DNA of 64,000 nucleotides from contig JABIEQ010000010.1 of assembly GCA_018651085.1 (NCBI GenBank), positions 1,688 to 65,687 of the forward strand. The letters run 5' to 3'. Below the pieces are notes generated by a model. It was not told the DNA's origin and did no database searches. It saw nothing but the letters and a program-made list of their open reading frames with translations. The translations under genes were made by a program, and so were the position numbers. Positions 1,763 through 40,272 of this stretch are shown here, in pieces (position 1 is the first letter of the stretch; the number at the start of each line of letters is the position of its first letter). Source of the DNA: Candidatus Magasanikiibacteriota bacterium. Lineage in GTDB: Bacteria > Patescibacteriota > Patescibacteriia > Magasanikbacterales > UBA922.

Positions 1763-1879
1763 ATTATCATTATTAATGTGACAATACTACTATACTGTAT
1801 TAAGCCTTTTTTGTACATTTCTATCTTTTTGGTCAATATTTTTATGACTGAATTTTACCTAAGTTAAGCTTAAAATACT

Positions 1880-1908
1880 TGACTAGTCTCTTTTTTTATG
1901 ATATTATG
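1880..1908 (+). promoter_or_regulatory. sigma70-like promoter TTGACT-N17-TATTAT feeding islet A gene
   Basis: ttgactagtctctttttttatgatattat lies about 55 nt upstream of the GTG start at 1962. The GC-rich sequence begins right after it. Confidence 0.35.
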
Positions 1909-1961
1909 AGCTCGTCAAGCTTGATAACCGGCCAAACCCGGCCAGAACTGCAGGAACTATT

Positions 1962-2441
1962 GTGAAGACCTTTACCCCTGTCCTTATCATCATCTCAGCT
2001 CTTTTTATCAACACTACGACAGAGGCTCAGATCGTTCAGACCTACATTACGACTGTTACCCCCATTTCCTACGATGGGACGTGGTCTAAAACGACCATCA
2101 GCACAGGGGGAGCCGCCATTCTTGTTCCCCTCGGGGAGGAAGGATGGTTCTTTCGTGGTTTACTAGGGGGAGGTGCGTTCTTGCAAGGCAACTCCAAACC
2201 CAGCGTGCCCGTAGCCCAAGGCTTTGGACTCCTTGGCTATAAACTCACTAAGGAATTTGTTTTCCTTGGTGGAGGTGGCATGAACGCCTTATTTCTTCCT
2301 ACTGGAGACACCAAAATTGTCATGACAGGGGTTAGTGGGGTAGGATGGGCTGTGAATAGACGTCTCCTCCTTGCAGGAGTGATGGCATTTACGCCAGATG
2401 GTTTTGCCCCTGGAGTACAACTTACGATCAATCTATTTTAG
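1962..2441 (+). CDS. small secreted Gly-rich protein, putative 8-strand OMP-like beta-barrel (GC-rich islet A)
   Basis: GTG start. Signal peptide MKTFTPVLIIISALFINTTTEA. Alternating amphipathic strands and a C-terminal ...GVQLTINLF with terminal Phe. Local GC is much higher than the flanks. Confidence 0.5.
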   Translation: MKTFTPVLIIISALFINTTTEAQIVQTYITTVTPISYDGTWSKTTISTGGAAILVPLGEEGWFFRGLLGGGAFLQGNSKPSVPVAQGFGLLGYKLTKEFVFLGGGGMNALFLPTGDTKIVMTGVSGVGWAVNRRLLLAGVMAFTPDGFAPGVQLTINLF

Positions 2442-2526
2442 GAGGTCTGGTTATCTTTGGAACTGACCACCCCCGCTACCGGCGGCGCACACCGGAACCC
2501 TCTTGTTAGGCCTAAGAAGAGAATAA

Positions 2527-2556
2527 AAGATCACCTCGATGAGGTGATCTTTTATT
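2527..2556. terminator. bidirectional intrinsic terminator (gatcacctc-gat-gaggtgatc followed by T-run) between islet A gene and polA
   Basis: Perfect 9-bp stem 2529-2549 flanked by A-run and T-run. Confidence 0.6.
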
Positions 2557-2567
2557 CTCTAAATTTT

Positions 2568-5264
2568 TTATTTTAAGTTCCCCCAACTTTTTCCGATTTC
2601 GTATTCTACAACAACGGGCACTTTGAGTTCAACAACGGCTACCATGATGTCATGCAACTCTTTTGCTACGGATTCTTCTAATCCTTTTTTCACTTCAAGA
2701 ACGAGTTCGTCATGAACTTGCAAAAGAATTTTCACATCCTCTTTTTTATATGTCTTTTTAATATGCTTATGCATATTAATCATGGCAATTTTTGTAATGT
2801 CTGCTAACGTTCCTTGAATTGGCATGTTAATCGCCATACGCTCTCCTGACGCACGTACCTGAAAATTTCCTGCTTGTAGCTCAGGGACATACCGACGCCT
2901 TCCAAAGAGCGTCTCAACGTATCCAGTCTCTTTTGCTTTTTCTAATGTGTCATCAAGAAACTTTTTAACTCGAGAAAATGATTCAAAATATTTTTTAATG
3001 AATTCTCGAGCAACAGCTTGAGAAAGTTTTGTTCTTTGCGCAAGACCAAACGCTCCCATACCATAAAGTACGCCAAAGTTTACTTCTTTTGCCGAACGAC
3101 GCTGATCTTTTGTTACGTCTTCAAGTTTTACTCCATGAATAAATGCTGCGGTAGCTTTATGAATGTCTTCACCGTTTTGAAAAATGGCCATCATGTTTTT
3201 ATCTTCAGCCATTGATGCCACGATACGTAATTCCATTTGTGAATAATCAGCAGCAATGAGTATGTATCCTTCTTCTGCAACAAAAGCATCGCGAACTTTT
3301 TTTCCTTGTGTTGTTCTAATTGGAATATTTTGTAAGTTTGGATCTGAACTTGATAGACGACCAGTTGAAGCAACGGTTTGATTAAACGTTGTGTGAATGC
3401 GCCCTGTTTTTTTATTAATCAATGTTGGCAATACATCAACATACGTATTTTGTAGTTTTGAAAGTTCACGAAATGATTCAATCATTGCAATGATCTCGTG
3501 TTGATCACGAAGTTTTTCTAATTCACTCGCTGCAGTTGAATATCCCGTCTTCCCTTTTTTAATTCCTTCTGTTGGTAACTCCATTTTTTCAAATAGCACT
3601 TCTCGTAATTGCATGGAAGACGCTACATTAAACTCTTCTCCAGATTCCTTCCAAATCTTTTGAGTAATGTCCTTAAGGTCTTTTGCTATTTGGGTTGACT
3701 GCTCTTTTAATGCCTTTGTATCGAGTGCAATCCCATGTAATTCTGCTTGGGCAAGTGCTGGAATAAGCGCCATTTCCATATCTTCAAATAACTTGAGGTT
3801 CTCAGCTTCTTTTAATGATTTTTCTTGCTTTTTCTTTATCTCAAGTACTCGTTGTAGTTCACCGGCAATGAGTGTTGGGTCTACTCCAAACAAACTTGTT
3901 TGATCACCTCCGTCTACCATTGTTTCACCTAATTCTCGAAGCACGATGTCTTTTAAATTATGTGCACGTGTACTTGCATCAATAATGTATGAAGCAACCA
4001 TGACATCAAAAATTTTTGCTGCTATGTTTTTATTGTTCCACAACAATGCCCGCACAAGTTGTTTTAAGTTATGTCCAACAATGGTTTTCTTTTCATTCGT
4101 AAATAAACTGAACAATGTATCATTATCTTTTTTACTTATCTTTTTTACCTCAACATAATACGAATTCTTGTACGTTACAAAAACAAACCCTAAAAGGTCG
4201 CTTTCAAATACACTTGTACCACTAAGTACTTCTTTACACCCCCATTCTTTTTCAGCATTAAGTTCCTGAAAAAAAACAGCACTGTTTTTCTCGTTTACAA
4301 TAGTTATTTTTTTACTTCGTGCTTTTGTTTTTTTATTTCCGCTATGTTCGCTTTGTTCAACTCCAGGTATTCTTTTTACTAACGAATAAAAACCAAATGA
4401 TCGAAATAGATCTGTGACTTTTTTCACATCAAACTCATGCGCCACACATTTTGCTAATGTAAACTTCAGTTCTTTTACCTCGGTATGAATCGTTGCAAGC
4501 TCTTGGCTCATAAATGCATTGTCTTCACTTGCTTCAAGTTTTTCAATGATCCCTTTTTTAAATTCAGTATGTAAACGAGAGTCTTTGTCTTTTAGTTGTT
4601 TATAAATTTCTTCAAGACCACCAATCTCATTAATAAGTTTTGTCGCTCCTTTATCACCAATACCTTTAACTCCAGGAATGTTATCTGAACTATCTCCTTT
4701 TATTGATTTGTAGGTTACCACCATGTTTGGCCCAAAGGTAAACTTTTCGATAACTTTTTGTTCATCATATAATTCAAACTCAGATACCCCTCTTTTTAAA
4801 AGATATACATGTGTGTCTTCATCAACTAATTGTAAGAGATCTTTATCTCCAGTTACAATGACAAATTCAATATCTTCTTTGTTCTTTTTTACTTTTTTTG
4901 CAAGCGTACCAATAACATCATCAGCTTCAAACCCTTTTTGTTCGTAAATGGGAATATTAAACGCTTCAACAAGGTCGTGAGCAAGTGGAATTTGATCATA
5001 AAGATCCTGATCTGATTTTACCCGTGTTGCTTTATAGTCTTCATAAATTTCATCTCGAAAAGTTCCTCCAGGCATATCAAATGTCACTGCAAGGTATGTG
5101 GGTTTAATATCACTCAATATTTTCAATAGCATTAAGGCAAATCCGTACACGGCATTTACCACTGTTCCGTCTTTTGCGGTAAGTGGTGGCAGTGCGTGAT
5201 ACGCCCTATGAACAATAGCGTTCCCGTCAATAATGACAAATCGTGGTTTTTCTGATGTAGACAT
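2568..5264 (-). CDS. polA: DNA polymerase I (5'-3' exo, 3'-5' exo-like and polymerase domains)
   Basis: 898 aa. N-terminus FVIIDGNAIVHRAYHALPPLT matches the 5' nuclease. C-terminal palm motifs RRSAKEVNFGVLYG and LLQVHDELVLE are present. Confidence 0.95.
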   Translation of the reverse strand: MSTSEKPRFVIIDGNAIVHRAYHALPPLTAKDGTVVNAVYGFALMLLKILSDIKPTYLAVTFDMPGGTFRDEIYEDYKATRVKSDQDLYDQIPLAHDLVEAFNIPIYEQKGFEADDVIGTLAKKVKKNKEDIEFVIVTGDKDLLQLVDEDTHVYLLKRGVSEFELYDEQKVIEKFTFGPNMVVTYKSIKGDSSDNIPGVKGIGDKGATKLINEIGGLEEIYKQLKDKDSRLHTEFKKGIIEKLEASEDNAFMSQELATIHTEVKELKFTLAKCVAHEFDVKKVTDLFRSFGFYSLVKRIPGVEQSEHSGNKKTKARSKKITIVNEKNSAVFFQELNAEKEWGCKEVLSGTSVFESDLLGFVFVTYKNSYYVEVKKISKKDNDTLFSLFTNEKKTIVGHNLKQLVRALLWNNKNIAAKIFDVMVASYIIDASTRAHNLKDIVLRELGETMVDGGDQTSLFGVDPTLIAGELQRVLEIKKKQEKSLKEAENLKLFEDMEMALIPALAQAELHGIALDTKALKEQSTQIAKDLKDITQKIWKESGEEFNVASSMQLREVLFEKMELPTEGIKKGKTGYSTAASELEKLRDQHEIIAMIESFRELSKLQNTYVDVLPTLINKKTGRIHTTFNQTVASTGRLSSSDPNLQNIPIRTTQGKKVRDAFVAEEGYILIAADYSQMELRIVASMAEDKNMMAIFQNGEDIHKATAAFIHGVKLEDVTKDQRRSAKEVNFGVLYGMGAFGLAQRTKLSQAVAREFIKKYFESFSRVKKFLDDTLEKAKETGYVETLFGRRRYVPELQAGNFQVRASGERMAINMPIQGTLADITKIAMINMHKHIKKTYKKEDVKILLQVHDELVLEVKKGLEESVAKELHDIMVAVVELKVPVVVEYEIGKSWGNLK

Positions 5265-5366: not shown

Positions 5367-5753
5367 CTACGTGAGCTTCTTTTCTCTCTCCATGATGTCT
5401 TCTAACAAAGAGACCGCCTGATCAGCGGCATATCTGCCGATCTCCCCGAATAGCCCTCCTCTTGAGTGTTCCTTTCGCAGGCGCCGAGCTTGGCGCCACC
5501 TGCTAAACCAGATCCACCCGATCCCGGGTGTTGCGGCGCACAGGGCACCGCCGATGGCGAGGGGCAGGATCATGGGGCCGTTGAAGACTCCGGAAAGCCC
5601 GAAGACCGTCACCGCAATCTGCATTGCGATGAGCATGACGCCGATCACTGGTGCGAGCACCAGTAACACCTGCCATCTTCTTGCTCGTGCTTCTGCCTTT
5701 TTCAGCTCCGCTCTGTCCTCGTTGGTTACCGTCGTCGCCAATGCCGTACTCAT
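5367..5753 (-). CDS. hypothetical 2-TM membrane protein (GC-rich islet B)
   Basis: ATG at 5753 is preceded by caggagg SD. Product MSTALATTVTNEDRAELKK...VLLVLAPVIGVMLIAMQIAVTVF... The region is GC-rich and ends in hairpin cacctcgtc/gacgaggtg at 5296-5330. Confidence 0.5.
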   Translation of the reverse strand: MSTALATTVTNEDRAELKKAEARARRWQVLLVLAPVIGVMLIAMQIAVTVFGLSGVFNGPMILPLAIGGALCAATPGIGWIWFSRWRQARRLRKEHSRGGLFGEIGRYAADQAVSLLEDIMEREKKLT

Positions 5754-5889
5754 AGGGTCCTCCTGTGTGTTGTGCATCTCCCTAGTTTGTACGTTCTATG
5801 GTACATGGAAGTCACAGGTACGTAAATAGGGAGAGATCTTGAGTAATTCTCTCTATTATGGTACATTGGACACGCTTGATTTTGCATTT

Positions 5890-5964
<75 letters not shown>

Positions 5965-9518: not shown

Positions 9519-10646
9519 TTACTGACGAATAGGCATGACTATGTATAAGTAATCTTCACGATTGTGTGGACGAAGCATACAGGGAGCATCACTACTATTC
9601 AAAAGAAAATCTCCTTTTTCTTCAAACTGAGATAATCCATCAAGGACATACCGATGATTCAATAAAATGGAATTTTCTTCTCCAGTTATTTCTACATCTA
9701 CTTCTGAGGCATGTTCACCTGTTTGTGTACTTGTTGACGAGACACCAATTGAACTGTTTTCCACGTTTAAATCAAACGACACGGCGTTTACCCCCATGGT
9801 TGTAAACAAACTTGCTGCTTTGATTTTTTTCTTTACGATGTCAACGGGAAATGTTGCTGTTGTTTTAAAGCTTTCAGGAATAATTTGAACATAATCTGGG
9901 TAGGTTCCATCAATAATGCGTGATGTCATCTGTATTCCCTGAAAAAGCATCGCAATTTGATTATCACTAATATGTAATTCAACAGTCATGTCTCCCTCCA
10001 TACCTTTTTGTGAAGAAATCAGTCTTGCCATTTCATACACGGTTTTAGCAGGGATAATACAAGTTACCGTATCAACTCCTCCAGCAAGGGACACTTTCTT
10101 TTCTGCGAGACGGTATGAATCCGTAGCAGCTAAAATTAAACCACTGTATCGTTCTGTTTTAAATCCCATGTACACACCAGAAAGTTCTGGTCGTATTTCA
10201 TTTTTAGCGGCAGCAAAGACCACACTAGAAAGCGCATCTCTAAATGGTGCTGCACTGAGGGTAAATGTTTGAGCTTCTTGGATTGCAGGGATAACAGGAT
10301 ATTCGTCAGCGGGGATGCCTTTTATTTTTGTACTTGAGCTTCCGCTTTTTACAAGGAGTTCATTTCCTTTAAGTGTTACGTCGACTTGTTCACTACCAAG
10401 AAGGTTTACATAATCTGTAAGCGTTTTTGCTGGAACAGTAAACGATCCTGTTTGTTCTATTTTTCCTCTGAGTGTTGTTTGTACGGCTATCTCTAGATTT
10501 GTACTAATAACTTCAATATGCGCTTCGTGCGCTTTTATTAAAATATTAGTGAGTATAGGGAGGTTCACTTGTTTCCCTGCAATACCACTTACTACGGTAA
10601 GTGCATGTGCTAAGTTTTCTTTGGTACACGTAAATTTCATATACAC
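9519..10646 (-). CDS. dnaN: DNA polymerase III beta sliding clamp
   Basis: 375 aa. MKFTCTKENLAHALTVVSGIAGKQVNLPILTNILIKA... has the three-domain clamp architecture. Sits immediately downstream of dnaA. Confidence 0.9.
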   Translation of the reverse strand: MYMKFTCTKENLAHALTVVSGIAGKQVNLPILTNILIKAHEAHIEVISTNLEIAVQTTLRGKIEQTGSFTVPAKTLTDYVNLLGSEQVDVTLKGNELLVKSGSSSTKIKGIPADEYPVIPAIQEAQTFTLSAAPFRDALSSVVFAAAKNEIRPELSGVYMGFKTERYSGLILAATDSYRLAEKKVSLAGGVDTVTCIIPAKTVYEMARLISSQKGMEGDMTVELHISDNQIAMLFQGIQMTSRIIDGTYPDYVQIIPESFKTTATFPVDIVKKKIKAASLFTTMGVNAVSFDLNVENSSIGVSSTSTQTGEHASEVDVEITGEENSILLNHRYVLDGLSQFEEKGDFLLNSSDAPCMLRPHNREDYLYIVMPIRQ

Positions 10647-10922
10647 AGGTTGCTTAAAGGTCTTTTCCTTTTCTTTTTATATATTAAATAGTAGTAGTAG
10701 TAAGGGAGTGGAAAAGTAGGATAACTGTTTTTTTCTTTCCTTCACCCAGCCAATAAATGAACTTATCCCCTTGTTTGCTGACTGTTATATGATTGGCATT
10801 TGTCTGTGGGTATGTTTTTTTCTTATTTTTTTGTGTGTGTATAAGTCGATGTTTTTCCACATGTGATGTCTTTGTTTATTGATGTTGCCCACATAGTTAT
10901 ACGTAGGATTATCCGCGAAAGA

Positions 10923-12338
10923 TTACACAGTGCGCGCTCTTTGCTTTATAAGTTCTAGCTCTTCACGCATTTTTGCACTCTCTTTTATAGCATTTTGAAT
11001 CTTTGTGTGTGCATGCATTGCTGTTGTATGATCTCTTCCTCCGAGTTCTTGTCCAATTGCAGGATACGACATCTTCAGTTCGTCTCGAAGAAGGAACATC
11101 GCGATTTGTCTTGGAAGTGATAATCTTTTTTCTCTACTTTTTCCTCTAATGTCTTCAAGGGTAATGTCGTAAAACTTTACAATAAGTGCTATAAGTTCTT
11201 TTGGTGTAAGGATCTTTTTAAGACTTGTACTTTCAAAGCTTGCAAGTATAGAGTTTACCGTCTCTTTGCTTGGTGATATATTTTTTAGTTCATGATATGC
11301 AATCACCTTGTTTAGTGCGCCTTCAAGTTCTCTAATATTACTTTTTACTTTTTCTGCAATGATTTGAATAATATTTTCTGTTAAACCATAATTTTTTTCT
11401 TGGCATTTTGATTGGAGAATGGCAGCTCTTGTTTCTAGGTCAGGTGCTGAAATGTCTGCAATCATACCCCATTCAAATCTGCTTCGTAGACGATCTTCAA
11501 GTGCAGGGATAGCTTTTGGTGGTCGATCACTTGTAAGGACGACTTGTCTTCCGTGTTGGTGAAGTTCGTTAAAGGTGTGAAAAAATTCTTCTTGAGTTTG
11601 TTCTTTTCCTCCTATAAATTGAATGTCATCAATTAAGAGCAGATCAACATTTCTATATCGTTCTTTAAATTCTTTTGCACGCCCTTCTTTTACAGAAGAC
11701 ACAAATTCATTGGTGAACTTTTCTGAACTCACGTAGAGAATTTTTGTGTTTGGGTTTTCTGTAAGCATTTGGTCAGCAATGGCTTGAAGCAAATGCGTTT
11801 TTCCAAGTCCTACCCCACCGTATATAAATAATGGGTTATAAGCGTCTCCTGGGCGATTTGCAACGGCTTTTGCAGCTGCGTGTGCTAATTCATTTTGTTT
11901 CCCTACAATAAAGGTTGCAAAAGTATACTTTTTATTTAACCCAAACTGTGATGCTGATAACGTTGAGCGTTGATTTCCTGGATTTCGTTGGTATTGATAT
12001 CCTTGTGGTTGTTGTGCTGCTGGTTGTGTTGGGGCTGATGTTGCTCGAATAGGGGCACTTATAACAGCTTCTTGTTCTTCGACGTGTTTGATGTTTCCTA
12101 CGTTGTACTCTACCTTCTTAATAGGTTTTGATGTTACTCGTTCAAGAGATTTTACAACGTCAGAGTGGTATTTCTTTTGGAGCCAGCTTTGTGTAAAGGT
12201 ATTTGGTACAATTATGATAACGTTTCCTTCAGTATATTCACTAATACCGGTGTGTTTAAACCAGGTGGTGAAGTTTGCTTTAGAAATAGAGAGTTCAAAC
12301 TCGGCGAGAACAGCTTGCCAGATTTCATGATTGGTCAT
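10923..12338 (-). CDS. dnaA: chromosomal replication initiator DnaA
   Basis: 471 aa. AAA+ Walker A GGVGLGKTHLL. C-terminal DNA-binding signature LGGRDHTTAMHAHTKI. Confidence 0.95.
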   Translation of the reverse strand: MTNHEIWQAVLAEFELSISKANFTTWFKHTGISEYTEGNVIIIVPNTFTQSWLQKKYHSDVVKSLERVTSKPIKKVEYNVGNIKHVEEQEAVISAPIRATSAPTQPAAQQPQGYQYQRNPGNQRSTLSASQFGLNKKYTFATFIVGKQNELAHAAAKAVANRPGDAYNPLFIYGGVGLGKTHLLQAIADQMLTENPNTKILYVSSEKFTNEFVSSVKEGRAKEFKERYRNVDLLLIDDIQFIGGKEQTQEEFFHTFNELHQHGRQVVLTSDRPPKAIPALEDRLRSRFEWGMIADISAPDLETRAAILQSKCQEKNYGLTENIIQIIAEKVKSNIRELEGALNKVIAYHELKNISPSKETVNSILASFESTSLKKILTPKELIALIVKFYDITLEDIRGKSREKRLSLPRQIAMFLLRDELKMSYPAIGQELGGRDHTTAMHAHTKIQNAIKESAKMREELELIKQRARTV

Positions 12339-12718
12339 AGATATGTGGAAAAAAGGAAGAAATTAGAGGTGAAATATGTGTGTAACCTCATTTTAGCACA
12401 AAACCTTTTTCTAAAAAATTGCTTTACTTAGCCAAAAGTTAGTAATATGGGGATAAGTTGTGCACAGTGTGGATAAGTGTCTCTTCGTTTGTGGTCATTC
12501 TTGTTTATGTGTAGGGCTTTTTTATTTTTTCGGAAAGGTTTGTCTGTCTTTTTGTTTTTTTTATTTTTTCCTTTGTTAAGAGAAAACCTTGACATATTTC
12601 CTCTTTTTCGTTATAGTGATATCGCTTTACAAGTGAGGTCGTGTCGCAAGAGTTATTTGTGATAAAGATCTCCATTTTTTAATATAAAGCGTTGCCGACT
12701 ATTCTATTTTTGTAATAT
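12339..12718. promoter_or_regulatory. divergent rpmH/dnaA intergenic region with DnaA boxes and AT-rich tract; candidate oriC or dnaA promoter
   Basis: Perfect TGTGGATAA at 12468-12476 and GGGGATAAG at 12449. T-rich tract at 12520-12580. Classic rpmH<->dnaA arrangement. Confidence 0.45.
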
Positions 12719-12988
12719 ATGCCTAAAAGAACATTTCAACCAAATCAACGTCGTCGTCGTAAAAAACACGGATTTCGTAAACGAATGGGTACGAAACAAG
12801 GGAAAGTGATATTAAAAAGACGTCGTGTTCGTGGACGTGATACGTTAACCGCTTCATGTGGACTTAGCCTAAAGCAACGTCGAAAGACTGGGCGCAAAAA
12901 AGGGCGAGTAAAGATTACCAAAAAATTTCATTCAAAACGACGAGTGAAAAAAGCGGTAAAGATGGCTGCAAAAGCAAAGAAATCATAA
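12719..12988 (+). CDS. rpmH: ribosomal protein L34 with unusual 44-aa Lys/Arg-rich C-terminal extension
   Basis: First 45 aa [46 protein letters not shown] form canonical L34. The ORF continues in frame to 89 aa. Confidence 0.8.
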
Positions 12989-13042
12989 TCAACGTAAAGA
13001 GCCTCGAAAAAACGGGGCTCTTTTGTTATACTTTTTACTAGT

Positions 13043-13423
13043 ATGGTACCAAGACAATATCGACTTAAACATAAAAAGGATTTTGATGCACTGTTTTCAG
13101 TGGGTCGTTTTGTTGGTGGTGATTGTGTACAGTTGAAAATATGGAAAATTAATTCGGAGACATTTCCAAAACGGAAGTACACGACAGATGATTTGAAAAT
13201 TGGTTTTGTTGTCAGTGTTAAGGTACATAAACGAGCGGTTATCCGTAATCGTATGAAACGTCGTATGCGAGAGGTTGTGCGCCTTATGTTAAAAGAACAG
13301 GCTCTGTTACCTGGATATTTAATTGCCGTTATGGCAAAGCCACAGATTGTTGATGCAACGTATGACGAAATTTCTGAATCAATTACTGCGGTGTTTCAAA
13401 AAGCTGGAATCGTAGTGTTATAA
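13043..13423 (+). CDS. rnpA: RNase P protein component
   Basis: 126 aa basic protein ...VSVKVHKRAVIRNRMKRRMRE... Lies in the conserved position after rpmH. Confidence 0.85.
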   Translation: MVPRQYRLKHKKDFDALFSVGRFVGGDCVQLKIWKINSETFPKRKYTTDDLKIGFVVSVKVHKRAVIRNRMKRRMREVVRLMLKEQALLPGYLIAVMAKPQIVDATYDEISESITAVFQKAGIVVL

Positions 13424-33845: not shown

Positions 33846-33913
33846 AGGGGTTGATTAAGTTAGGGTTTTATGGTACATATGGGGTTGGACGCACATTGTT
33901 GTGCGAAGGAGAT

Positions 33914-34204
33914 AACATGGACGATAGATTGTCTGGTCTCAACTTTTTTTATGTGAGGGCGCAATTGTCTTCTTGGGGCTTGATCCCTGACGAAGACAGG
34001 GAGCGTATCCTTCAAGAAGTGGACGCAGCTCGTCAGGATCCACCTAACCTCGAGGAAGAAGATCCTCAGGGTACGAAGGCTTCTATTTCTGATGGGGATC
34101 TCAAGAGGATCCTTGGAGAGCTTCAGGGCCCCTTCAATCAGATGTGGGATGATTGGATACGAGCAACCGCTGAGATGGGAGGGTATGATCTTGACTCCTT
34201 GTAG
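33914..34204 (+). CDS. hypothetical small acidic protein (GC-rich islet C)
   Basis: aaggag SD lies 7 nt before ATG 33914. Product MDDRLSGLNFFYVRAQLSSWGLIPDEDRERILQEVDAARQD.. The TATGGTACAT motif lies about 40 nt upstream. Confidence 0.45.
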   Translation, partial: NMDDRLSGLNFFYVRAQLSSWGLIPDEDRERILQEVDAARQDPPNLEEEDPQGTKASISDGDLKRILGELQGPFNQMWDDWIRATAEMGGYDLDSL

Positions 34205-34536
34205 CCTGTGAAGGGAGCACGGGCTTCGGGTACGACGGTAAGGCGACATGCTTTGCCGTCGTCACCTTGCCTATTTTTGTATAGTAATTATTTTTCTCTT
34301 TTTTAAGTATTTTTCAATAGTGTTATGAAGCGCGATGTAATGCATCGTGTTTTTATATATCTTTAGTTAACCGTATTTAGTCTTTTTTAGCAATGGGGGT
34401 ATATATTGACAGTCGTCTTTATCTATGATAATTATTTTTTTAAGGTCCTGTGTGCATGTATGGGGCTTTGTTATTTGTATTTTTTTGTTTGGGTTGATAT
34501 AGTCTGGGTAGTTTGGGACTTTCATAGGAGGTTCAT

Positions 34537-34852
34537 TGTGGTTAGGAAAAATGGTGTGAAAAGGAAGGGGTTCAAACAAAAAGGGTATGTCGATATTCTT
34601 CGCGAAGGTCCGCGAATGTCTGTTGATGGAACCTTTCTTAGAGAAGGAGATAGGAGGAGACTGGGTGTCCGTTGGTTTACTCGCTTTGAGAAGCGAAGTA
34701 AGGGGGCTCGAGAAATCTTCGTGATTGAAGAACACCGTGGTAGCAGGGAGAAAAGAGTTCTGCACCAGCTGCTGGTTCATCACGATGGACTCTATCGGGT
34801 CTCACGAAGAGGGATCATACTTCTCGAAGAAAGTAACCGCGCTACAGGGTGA
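34537..34852 (+). CDS. hypothetical small basic protein (GC-rich islet D)
   Basis: aggagg SD then GTG 34537. Arg/Lys-rich product ..GVKRKGFKQKGYVDILREGPRMSVDGTFLREGDRRRLGVRWF.. Promoter TTGACA..TGATAAT at 34395-34421. Terminator hairpin at 34921-34950. Confidence 0.4.
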
Positions 34853-34949
34853 GATCTGGGGCGTTAGCGAGGGCTCAGTCTTCGCGTTAGTTATAATAAG
34901 TGTATTGTTCTTACTAACGAAAACACCACCCTTATTGGGTGGTGTTTGG

Positions 34950-35903
34950 TTATGCACGGATGATAGCAAAAGCGATATAGGTAATATATAACAGGACGAA
35001 AAGCCACCCTTGCCATCGTTTGAGTTGGTGCTTGGGTCCAATAAACATGAAGGCAAAAAGAAGAAATGTAATAAAACAGGTAAATAATACGTCAGTATTT
35101 ATTGCAACATTAAATGGAAGTGGTTTGATGAGTGCTGTAATTCCTAATATCCAAAAGACATTGAAAATGTTTGATCCAATAGCATTTCCAATAGCAAGAT
35201 CAGTGTGTCCTTGGCGTATTGCTGATACTGTGGTTGCAAGTTCTGGTAGCGATGTTCCAATTGCTACAATGGTAAGACCAATAATTCTTTCACTTAACCC
35301 GGCCTGTGTCGCTAGAATTATTGCATTATCTACAATCCATTTTCCTCCAAGGACAAGACCAACAATTCCTATAGCAAACATGAATAGTGATGTTGACCAG
35401 TTGTATGTTTCTACTTCTTCTTTTTCTGTCTCTACCTTAGAGATGCCATAGACATGGTAAAGAAATATGATGAAAAATAAGAGGAATATCATTCCGTCAG
35501 CACGGCTTAATACGTTTACTGATGTGTGATTTAAAAATCCATCGTTTCCCATGATAGCTACAACAAAAATTGCGAGTAGGGCAAAGGGTATTTCTTTGTA
35601 AGTAGTGCCCCTTTTTATTTTTAAGGTTTTAATTATCGCTCCAATTCCTAGAATAAGAAGGATGTTTGCCATGTTACTTCCGATAATGTTGGCAATTGCT
35701 AAATCAGTAGTTCCTTTAGTAGCTGAAAGAAGGTTTACAACAAGTTCTGGTGCAGATGTACCAAAGGCAACAACAGTAAATCCAATTGCAATTGCTGAAA
35801 TACCAAATCGTTTTGCGATAGATGCTGATCCACGGACAAGCATTTCTGCTCCACCAATTAAAATGGCGAGACCAAGAATAAGAAAGAGAATAGGGATAAT
35901 CAT
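34950..35903 (-). CDS. CaCA-family Na+/Ca2+ exchanger (YrbG-like)
   Basis: Two alpha-repeats GTSAPELVVNL and GTSLPELATTV. 10 TMs. Confidence 0.8.
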   Translation of the reverse strand: MIIPILFLILGLAILIGGAEMLVRGSASIAKRFGISAIAIGFTVVAFGTSAPELVVNLLSATKGTTDLAIANIIGSNMANILLILGIGAIIKTLKIKRGTTYKEIPFALLAIFVVAIMGNDGFLNHTSVNVLSRADGMIFLLFFIIFLYHVYGISKVETEKEEVETYNWSTSLFMFAIGIVGLVLGGKWIVDNAIILATQAGLSERIIGLTIVAIGTSLPELATTVSAIRQGHTDLAIGNAIGSNIFNVFWILGITALIKPLPFNVAINTDVLFTCFITFLLFAFMFIGPKHQLKRWQGWLFVLLYITYIAFAIIRA

Positions 35904-39609: not shown

Positions 39610-40272
39610 TCATGGTTGAGCCTCCTCCTTCCCCTTGTTGGTGTCGATTTTTTTTGTGCCTACGACGACTTTTCCTCTTTTGAAGATGATATCGAATCGG
39701 GTTGCCCCTCGTCTCATCTTCTGGATGTCGGGCTTCAATAAGGTAAGCCTCACGCTTTTTCCCAGTCCGTCGGGGTTAAAGGTGAAACGTCGTTTCATCT
39801 CAGCTCCATGCAGTCCCTCAGGTGCTTCGAAGCGAATAAACACTTGGAGAGGTTCGTGCATACCGCCGCCTGCGAGTAGCATGGTGCGTCCTCCTTGAGA
39901 AGTCACGCTGTATATGAAGACGGTGTGCCCTTTGGCTACTGCATCTTCGAGTACAAACATTCTTTCTTCAGTTTGAACAGCCCTCTTCTGGAGTCCTTCC
40001 ATCATGTTCTCGAGTTGTCCGATCTTCTCGAGAAGGGTGATCGCTTCAGAAGACAGCTCTTCAGGCTCTTCCTCTGGTACGACCTCCATGATGCTTGCCA
40101 GAGCATCTTGTTGGGCTTTCAGGATGGTCTTGATGACTTCTCCTTTTTTGCCCTTTGGAGACACTCCTAAACTTTCGGCGATTTGCCTTACATAGGTGGC
40201 GTCTTCGTTTCCCTTGGCCTTGCTTTGGCCTAAGGTGAGTCCTTTGAGCTCTTGCTCGGTCCACTCTTTCAT
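39610..40272 (-). CDS. hypothetical protein with Rho_N/SAP-like N-terminal motif (GC-rich islet F)
   Basis: ATYVRQIAESLGVSPKGKKGEVIKTILKAQQ resembles the Rho N-terminal helix-hairpin. A beta-rich C-terminal half follows. About 50 % GC versus AT-rich flanks. Confidence 0.5.
   Translation of the reverse strand: MKEWTEQELKGLTLGQSKAKGNEDATYVRQIAESLGVSPKGKKGEVIKTILKAQQDALASIMEVVPEEEPEELSSEAITLLEKIGQLENMMEGLQKRAVQTEERMFVLEDAVAKGHTVFIYSVTSQGGRTMLLAGGGMHEPLQVFIRFEAPEGLHGAEMKRRFTFNPDGLGKSVRLTLLKPDIQKMRRGATRFDIIFKRGKVVVGTKKIDTNKGKEEAQP

Follow-up and report, generated by a model that had tools for sequence, protein, structure and literature searches.

A small gene lies near one end of a 64-kb stretch of DNA (64,000 nucleotides, hereafter the window; contig JABIEQ010000010.1, positions 1,688 to 65,687) from a member of Candidatus Magasanikbacteria, a lineage of the Parcubacteria group within the Patescibacteria. 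The gene fills most of a GC-rich islet, islet A, and has TrmB, holA, rpsT and polA as neighbours. Its 159-aa product is annotated as a hypothetical protein in five NCBI metagenome-assembled genomes (MBT3418985.1 and others). The observations collected here make it reasonably probable, though far from certain, that the gene is real and horizontally acquired and that it encodes an exported membrane barrel resembling an outer-membrane protein (OMP); any specific location or role of this barrel protein commands much less confidence. The features of the locus, in window coordinates, are the following.

1879..1907, + strand: sigma-70-type promoter-like site, with TTGACT, a 17-nt spacer, TATTAT and an extended -10 TG; a consensus match only
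1915..2517, no strand: GC-rich islet, GC ~0.50 against 0.36 for the genome, comprising a 5' leader, the open reading frame (ORF) and a 76-nt GC-rich 3' untranslated region (UTR)
1952..1955, + strand: Shine-Dalgarno-like AGGA, 6 nt 5' of the GTG, read from the sequence
1962..2441, + strand: protein-coding gene, GTG start, 159 aa, stop codon at 2439-2441
1962..2027, + strand: predicted Sec signal peptide, residues 1-22, signal peptidase I site T-E-A/Q, by inspection
2031..2432, + strand: predicted 8-stranded antiparallel beta-barrel, residues 24-157, from AlphaFold2 and Foldseek
2518..2560, no strand: intrinsic-terminator-like element, a perfect 20-bp hairpin with a 3-nt loop, then a T-run

The islet is sharply set off from its surroundings: GC content is 0.49-0.53 over positions 1951-2550 and ~0.35 in the flanks. 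The GC content at third codon positions (GC3) of the barrel gene is 0.48, compared with 0.25±0.04 for the 44 other genes of the window, a deviation of more than 5 standard deviations. As the third positions deviate as well, the high GC is more than the effect of a protein rich in Gly, Ala and Pro. The promoter-like site scores 10/12 consensus matches, the best in the interval 1600-2800, and sits in AT-rich native DNA directly 5' of the islet. At the other end, the terminator-like hairpin occupies the space between the barrel gene and the convergent polA, whose stop codon is at 2568-2570, and z = -6.0 for 2442-2570. Mobile-element insertion was considered as the origin of the islet and rejected: neither flanking direct repeats nor terminal inverted repeats of the islet were found. 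Rfam, applied to positions 1750-2650 at the gathering threshold and at E up to 10, returned only terminator-like noise. A sequence-only reading of this DNA had described a GC-rich islet with a 159-aa product, and both descriptions stand, the product being that of the GTG-initiated ORF listed above.

The gene is not peculiar to a single assembly. It is found intact on 22 contigs of independent NCBI, ENA and Logan assemblies, every time between a TrmB-family gene and polA, and an assembly chimera was rejected on account of this identical context. The population is nearly clonal, with at most 1 substitution in the barrel gene and 0-13 in ~4 kb of flank. The near-clonal copies therefore rule out an assembly artefact, but they do not allow selection to be measured.

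Relatives of the protein are exceedingly rare. A phmmer search of 1.84 billion cluster representatives retrieved four homologues of 153-187 aa (E = 6e-8 to 4e-7), which are 38-48% identical among themselves and 29-36% identical to the window protein, the most divergent member of the family. A word-indexed search of 5.8 billion proteins recovered a 99% copy only, and a profile search added no further members. Among GTDB genomes, a scan with the motif LGGGG gave 53 pattern matches, none of them homologous; JGI metagenomes yielded no new member, only a contig again encoding the homologue P0003; and 2.9 million viral contigs of IMG/VR contained no relative of the barrel protein. The outcome is a newly defined orphan family with five members among about 15 billion sequences.

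Eighteen co-linear columns are invariant in 5/5 sequences and include P56, L57, F63, R65, P83, Q86, G104-G106, L110 and F111. In addition, the four full-length members all have Q153 and G103; the family motif LGGGG..LF corresponds to residues 102-111. Three homologues terminate in G-Y-x-W. The fourth, P0005, has an unrelated C-terminus, and a frameshift that might explain it was searched for and none was found. The homologue loci represent unrelated DNA contexts without DNA-level similarity to the islet, and the GC-rich UTRs, inspected for remnants of a donor gene, bear no similarity to these loci. Because co-linear homologues occur in unrelated contexts, the ORF belongs to a real, albeit very small, protein family. 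The retention of all family-invariant core residues at 29-36% identity suggests long constraint somewhere in the history of the gene. Translational coupling of the barrel gene to a neighbour is seen at two homologue loci. At locus L002 (2166-4129) it overlaps the gene for a 501-aa NMT1-like binding protein by 4 nt, and at locus L023 (432-1904) its start abuts the stop of the gene for a 324-aa multicopper-oxidase-like protein. As the coupled partners differ between the two loci, there is no conserved operon.

The N-terminus of the window protein has the parts of a Sec signal peptide: the n-region MK, the h-region TFTPVLIIISALFI, which provides a 14-residue hydrophobic core, and the c-region NTTTEA/Q. 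There is no lipobox Cys, and the protein as a whole contains no Cys. A signal-peptide-like N-terminal segment ending at A-x-A/Q-like sites is present in 4/4 homologues, and AlphaFold assigns residues 1-20 a predicted local distance difference test score (pLDDT) below 50. The mature part (~137 aa) has no hydrophobic helix and is composed of 17.6% Gly, 11.8% aromatic and 10.3% charged residues. The corresponding ranges for the mature family are 13-18%, 9-12% and 10-19%, with 10-11% charged residues in 3/4 full-length members, the window protein included. The charged residues coincide with predicted turns, except the invariant R65. Judged from alternation in the sequence and not from model coordinates, the predicted strands 1, 2, 7 and 8 each have one face with a mean hydropathy of 2.4-2.7 and another, uncharged face of Gly, Ser, Thr and Gln.

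The C-terminal beta-signal recognized by the beta-barrel assembly machinery (BAM) has the consensus polar-x-G-x-x-aromatic-x-aromatic, the last residue being F, W or Y. The window protein ends in VQLTINLF, where the terminal F alone fits the consensus; in the three homologues with G-Y-x-W the aromatic-x-aromatic pair is present and the Gly is displaced. The beta-signal thus appears to be only partly present in the window protein. The sequence-only reading had listed a cleavable signal peptide, Gly-rich alternating amphipathic segments and a terminal Phe as OMP sorting signature. The signal peptide is readily seen on inspection and has its equivalent in all four homologues. The segments are indeed Gly-rich, and their alternation is clean in strands 1, 2, 7 and 8 but blurred in strands 3-6. 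The Phe is there, and it is the one residue of the ending that fits the beta-signal consensus.

The shape of the protein was addressed by structure prediction. AlphaFold2, run on the five-sequence alignment, produced a best model with a pLDDT of 76.9 and a predicted template modelling (TM) score of 0.69, in which the chain forms a meander of strands at residues 24-32, 45-56, 62-74, 82-94, 99-111, 117-131, 135-144 and 147-157, joined by connections of 2-12 residues. Prediction from the single sequence is poor (pLDDT 36), yet all-beta. In a Foldseek comparison with the PDB the top 15 matches are transmembrane beta-barrels, nearly all of them 8-stranded. The OmpA transmembrane domain (1qjp) is matched with E = 2.6e-4 and a target-normalised TM of 0.66, and a designed transmembrane barrel (6x9z) with a target-normalised TM of 0.82 (root-mean-square deviation 3.1 A, 120 residues, 17% identity). 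Further matches are Ail (TM 0.57), OmpX (0.55), NspA (0.54), OmpW (0.43-0.48) and the OprF N-domain. Among matches with probability >0.9, soluble lipocalin-type barrels, the nitrophorins, start at rank 20 with a TM of 0.30-0.33. The matches in BFVD are phage entries named 'outer membrane protein beta-barrel', with scores similar to those from the PDB. The predicted fold is consistent, at a moderate level of confidence, with an OMP-type 8-stranded barrel.

Sequence comparisons are silent on this fold. Pfam, at E up to 1, matches no family with the window protein; NCBIfam offers only a sub-threshold FadL match (E = 0.029) for one family member; a profile search of PDB sequences gave nothing relevant to the family; and PHROG and PADLOC have no match for the barrel protein or the other islet ORFs. 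The small beta-barrel anticipated by the sequence-only reading is recovered at the level of predicted structure, where the top PDB matches are all transmembrane beta-barrels, whereas membership in OmpX, OmpW, OmpA or PF13505, the families to which that reading had pointed, finds no match to a hidden Markov model. Homology to a soluble secreted family, against which the same reading had staked its barrel, was not found in Pfam, NCBIfam or PDB sequences.

The identity of the host gives the prediction its significance. Patescibacteria have been reported to lack an outer membrane (PMC12102498). The few described organisms of the Candidate Phyla Radiation (CPR) are monoderm, and most lineages have never been imaged (PMC8871954). 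RecA, RuvB, MsrB, RnpA, RuvC, PolA, TrmB and the barrel protein of the window all have exact matches named Candidatus Magasanikbacteria at NCBI. The gene content of the window includes two TrmB regulators, PBP1a, LysM-M23, SpoIID, a 3D-type protein, Wzy_C and LspA, together with a DksA-type zinc finger, several NUDIX genes and a dnaA-dnaN origin region. Of 43 ORFs of the window that were compared with Pfam, none belongs to Bam, Lpt, Tol, TolC, OmpA or other outer-membrane biogenesis families. The impression of monoderm-like surroundings that the sequence-only reading had gained thus agrees both with this inventory and with what is reported of the host group.

RpoC scores best against the enzymes of C. 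difficile, B. subtilis and actinobacteria, above that of E. coli. When RpoC is matched to the E. coli enzyme, the match breaks in two at E. coli residue ~949, a point that probably corresponds to the SI3 insertion. RecA shows no proteobacterial affinity, and RpoB is short (1144 aa). The six closest GTDB genomes, L007 to L012 (CAZTEU010000004.1, OZ246405.1, CAZFTR010000003.1, CAYFPM010000002.1, CAZKMQ010000004.1 and CAYFPJ010000028.1, respectively), are titled 'uncultured Gammaproteobacteria bacterium', yet they are syntenic with the window, and this label is probably wrong. Their PolA proteins are 51-60% identical to that of the window, and one of the six is a 1.23-Mb chromosome. A gammaproteobacterial host, as implied by these titles, was rejected on the affinities of RpoC and RecA and on the NCBI names.

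These six genomes also bear on the origin of the gene. In the relatives the order 3D-protein/tRNA/polA is conserved, as is the pairing of 3D-protein with PBP1, to which L007 adds dnaN. Neither the barrel gene nor ORF 5367-5777, which lies in a second islet of the window, has a homologue in the related genomes, the syntenic site having been checked in all six; in L007, polA is followed after about 180 bp by a TrmB-like gene, with nothing between. The GC3 anomaly and the absence from the syntenic site of the relatives together indicate a recent horizontal acquisition of the barrel gene, and the horizontal origin considered in the sequence-only reading is supported to that extent.

The best-documented homologue, P0003, is encoded between an asparagine synthase (AsnB) and an NMT1-like binding protein on contigs of 50% GC, at a locus that adjoins a Wzy_C-TPR protein and glycosyltransferases. 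Among the classifiable named matches of the neighbouring asparagine synthase, 14/16 are Patescibacteria, recorded as Azambacteria, Portnoybacteria, Komeilibacteria, Parcubacteria or 'Patescibacteria group'. On the strength of these affinities P0003 is probably Patescibacterial too, and its gene seems to reside on a Patescibacteria-like contig, not in a recognized diderm, so that a diderm donor is no more than a possibility; the other three homologue contigs are too short for classification. The contigs with the closest asparagine synthases (66-69% identical; L025 and L026) are devoid of the barrel gene, and the GC3 of the P0003 gene, 0.68, is mildly above the 0.50-0.61 of its neighbours. Overall, the family gives the impression of a mobile accessory gene of sporadic occurrence.

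Islet A is not the only compositional anomaly of the window. A second GC-rich islet, islet B, at 5367-5777 (- strand), between polA (2568-5264) and tRNA-Cys (5890-5964), reaches a GC of 0.63 and a GC3 of 0.69. The product of its ORF, 136 aa long (128 aa in the NCBI version), contains about three hydrophobic helices; its Pfam matches (holin-like, SLATT) are all sub-threshold. This islet is missing from the tRNA/polA interval of L007 and L010, and L011 has there a different 1.3-kb islet with a GC of 0.62-0.68. Two further ORFs are GC3 outliers against the 0.25±0.04 of the window: 39610-40272 (-), with a GC3 of 0.54 and 220 aa, and 33851-34204 (+), with a GC3 of 0.49 and an acidic product of 117 aa. 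Both are hypothetical proteins in the same Magasanikbacteria genomes, and neither has a Pfam or PADLOC match. Positions 34250-34950 (~700 bp), flanked by a pair of GC-rich ORFs on one side and a Na/Ca-exchanger gene on the other, attain a GC of 0.51 and contain only overlapping ORFs without family matches, on both strands, and no Rfam match at E up to 0.01. The genes dnaN, dnaA and rnpA at 9519-13423 mark a probable replication origin region, and both islets, A and B, lie within ~10 kb of it.

Analogous islets dot the relatives L007-L012: they span 0.4-1.8 kb and reach a GC of as much as 0.69, against 0.38-0.44 for the genomes. Examples are the following GC-rich islets.

L008: 8751-9650
L009: 8701-9250 and 11451-12300
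L010: 8851-9500
L011: 4701-6000
L012: 4401-6250

The islets of the window and of the relatives share no sequence, save one pair among the relatives (L008/L012), and three of the relatives' islets are directly downstream of polA, the position of islet A. As unrelated islets recur, three of them at this polA-proximal site, the pattern suggests that foreign DNA has integrated repeatedly between genes at a small number of sites.

A number of observations speak against an exported, OMP-like membrane barrel. The fold derives from an alignment of only five sequences, the other four models have pLDDT values of 65, 62, 43 and 35, and the E-values of Foldseek, about 1e-4 to 1e-2, are modest. Curated OMP families show no similarity in sequence, as PF13505, PF01389, PF06316 and PF03922 remain unmatched by the five members at E up to 10. 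Strands 3-6 lack a clean in/out alternation and include Gly runs and a Pro/Gly bulge. The window protein departs from its own family, with I-N-L-F in place of G-Y-x-W and R-G in place of 'R-P', and purifying selection is not measurable in a near-clonal population. The absence of BamA was judged within the 64-kb window only, in a genome that has a contig of at least 863 kb. Finally, native bilayers of phosphatidylethanolamine and phosphatidylglycerol normally resist the unassisted insertion of barrels.

Four other explanations have to be set beside the membrane barrel. The predicted fold may be right and the gene nevertheless an inert passenger: foreign DNA recently integrated downstream of polA and still undecayed, whose product has no role and is perhaps lost once made, or never made. 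The unameliorated GC3 would fit, as would the unrelated GC-rich islets that pepper the genomes of the lineage, of which relatives have three at this polA-proximal position. The lineage of a homologue likewise has the gene only sporadically, as it is missing from the AsnB relatives L025 and L026; no other member of the family diverges as far as the window protein, which has lost the G-Y-x-W ending; and no selection signal is measurable. Against this, the promoter-like site is close to consensus, a Shine-Dalgarno sequence precedes the start codon and the terminator is a proper one, the ORF is intact and fixed across the population (22 contigs), and the family-invariant core residues are all kept at 29-36% identity. 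On balance we regard an inert passenger as unlikely. We are slightly more sceptical still of a secreted non-membrane protein, a soluble or wall-associated beta-barrel or beta-sandwich of lipocalin or avidin type that would handle a hydrophobic ligand outside the cell. Such a product would suit a host with no outer membrane to take up an OMP and would account for the hydrophobic residues on both faces of strands 3-6, as expected of a hydrophobic core. Moreover, the lipocalin-type nitrophorins are among the weaker Foldseek matches (ranks 20-30), and two homologue loci adjoin proteins of periplasmic or extracellular type (NMT1-like and multicopper-oxidase-like). A soluble barrel, however, needs a polar exterior, whereas only 10% of the residues here are charged and these are located in turns; the TM is ~0.3 for soluble barrels and 0.55-0.82 for membrane barrels; and no soluble family is matched in sequence. 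By its predicted structure the protein falls outside the lipocalin/avidin-like class.

A conventional, BAM-assembled OMP would require either an atypical lineage of Magasanikbacteria with an outer membrane or a contig that derives from a diderm. The combination of signal peptide, 8-stranded barrel and C-terminal aromatic residue is the classical OMP set, the six closest genomes are titled Gammaproteobacteria, and the envelopes of most CPR lineages have never been imaged (PMC8871954). Nevertheless, RpoC sides with C. difficile, B. subtilis and actinobacteria over E. coli, to whose enzyme its match is split, RecA is without gammaproteobacterial affinity and RpoB is short; identical proteins are listed at NCBI under Ca. 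Magasanikbacteria; the genes present are those typically met with in Patescibacteria, with no outer-membrane gene among the 43 ORFs; and the foreign GC3 places the gene outside a core envelope set. A conventional OMP is thus very improbable. The last explanation denies a protein altogether and regards the islet as a GC-rich structured RNA or a mobile-element remnant with a fortuitous ORF. In an AT-rich genome a GC-rich islet is often an RNA gene, and the opposite strand also has long ORFs. Yet Rfam has no match at E up to 10 besides terminator-like noise, terminal repeats are lacking, the signal peptide is conserved and there are protein-level homologues in unrelated DNA contexts. The homologues effectively refute the non-coding reading, to which we attach almost no credence.

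If the product is an exported OMP-like membrane barrel, its path can be outlined as follows. The gene would be transcribed from its own promoter, with transcription ending at the hairpin shared with the convergent polA. The Sec system would export the product, and signal peptidase I would remove 22 residues, leaving a mature protein of ~137 aa without a helical anchor. This is predicted to fold as a minimal, all-next-neighbour 8-stranded barrel of the OmpA-TM/OmpX/Ail/OmpW class, with very short loops, one hydrophobic strand face, a lumen lined with Gly, Ser, Thr, Gln and Arg, and charges in the turns. Because both an outer membrane and BAM are reportedly missing from the host lineage, the barrel would have to insert into a bilayer unaided; otherwise the protein would be lost. 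Two bilayers come into question as targets, the cell's own membrane at its outer face and the membrane at the surface of a partner cell. In vitro, small 8-stranded barrels, natural as well as designed, are able to insert unaided. The minimal loops, the high Gly content and the designed barrel as closest size-normalised counterpart are compatible with catalyst-free insertion. As the loops comprise only 2-12 residues, a small channel, a membrane-embedded surface element or an adhesive anchor appears likelier than an enzyme or a receptor; the role of surface anchor or adhesive beta-sheet edge has been proposed for OmpX and Ail. Taken to its end, this line of thought leads to the proposition that some Patescibacteria, devoid of outer membrane and BAM, export a Gly-rich 8-stranded barrel that self-inserts in their own or a partner's membrane and serves there as an anchor or conduit. 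We put this forward tentatively, as a conjecture that is more probably wrong than right.

Beta-barrels of the monomeric OMP type are seen as a hallmark of the outer membrane and of assembly machines of the BAM/SAM type. If the conjecture were true, no earlier case would exist of a natural monomeric OMP-type barrel at work outside an outer membrane, and the designed self-inserting barrels would have their counterpart in nature. In the literature searched, no description was found of an orphan family that combines an OMP-type fold with a host lineage believed to be without an outer membrane. It begs the question of whether a natural minimal barrel can insert without a catalyst, and whether epibiotic Patescibacteria place barrels in the membrane of their partner. 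At 137 aa the protein is small and easily synthesized, and so provides a concrete test object for unaided insertion. More broadly, unrelated GC-rich islets carrying orphan genes for membrane and secreted proteins bear on how reduced genomes gain surface functions.

In its genomic setting, the gene is reminiscent of the Lom/Ail-type morons of phages, with which it shares the organization as a self-contained single transcription unit of deviant GC between housekeeping genes. It differs from them in that no phage genes adjoin it and neither a relative on viral contigs nor a PHROG match is known from the searches made; with TrmB, holA, rpsT and polA as neighbours, it is not a prophage moron.

At the level of the protein, the closest natural parallels are the OmpA transmembrane domain (1QJP/1BXW) and OmpX, Ail and NspA. 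They have in common with the window protein the signal peptide, the eight-strand antiparallel meander, as predicted here, and the C-terminal aromatic residue. The size is similar, ~137 aa for the mature window protein and 148 for OmpX, and as in these barrels the predicted connections on the loop side (12, 7, 5 and 2 residues) are on the whole longer than those on the turn side (5, 4 and 3). The differences are equally clear: the window protein has no sequence relationship to them, its loops are far shorter and its lumen is unusually Gly-rich (GGGG, GGG); furthermore, its family comprises five sequences and its host lineage is reported to be without outer membrane and BAM. OmpW and OprG (2F1V, 8QXP, 2X27) are likewise 8-stranded and among the Foldseek matches. 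The lumen of OmpW is hydrophobic, which could parallel the small or apolar residues on both faces of strands 3-6. In contrast, OmpW has ~190 aa and longer loops, its TM is lower (0.43-0.48) and PF03922 is unmatched. The best target-normalised match is to the designed transmembrane beta-barrels (6X9Z, 6X1K), which reportedly fold into bilayers without BAM. These share with the window protein the minimal set of 8 strands, connections of 2-5 residues and glycine kinks; they are synthetic and stand in no evolutionary relationship to it, and self-insertion of the window protein is a suggestion drawn from the likeness. By its predicted structure, therefore, the protein takes its place with OmpA-TM, OmpX, Ail, NspA and OmpW, whereas its sequence belongs to none of these families.

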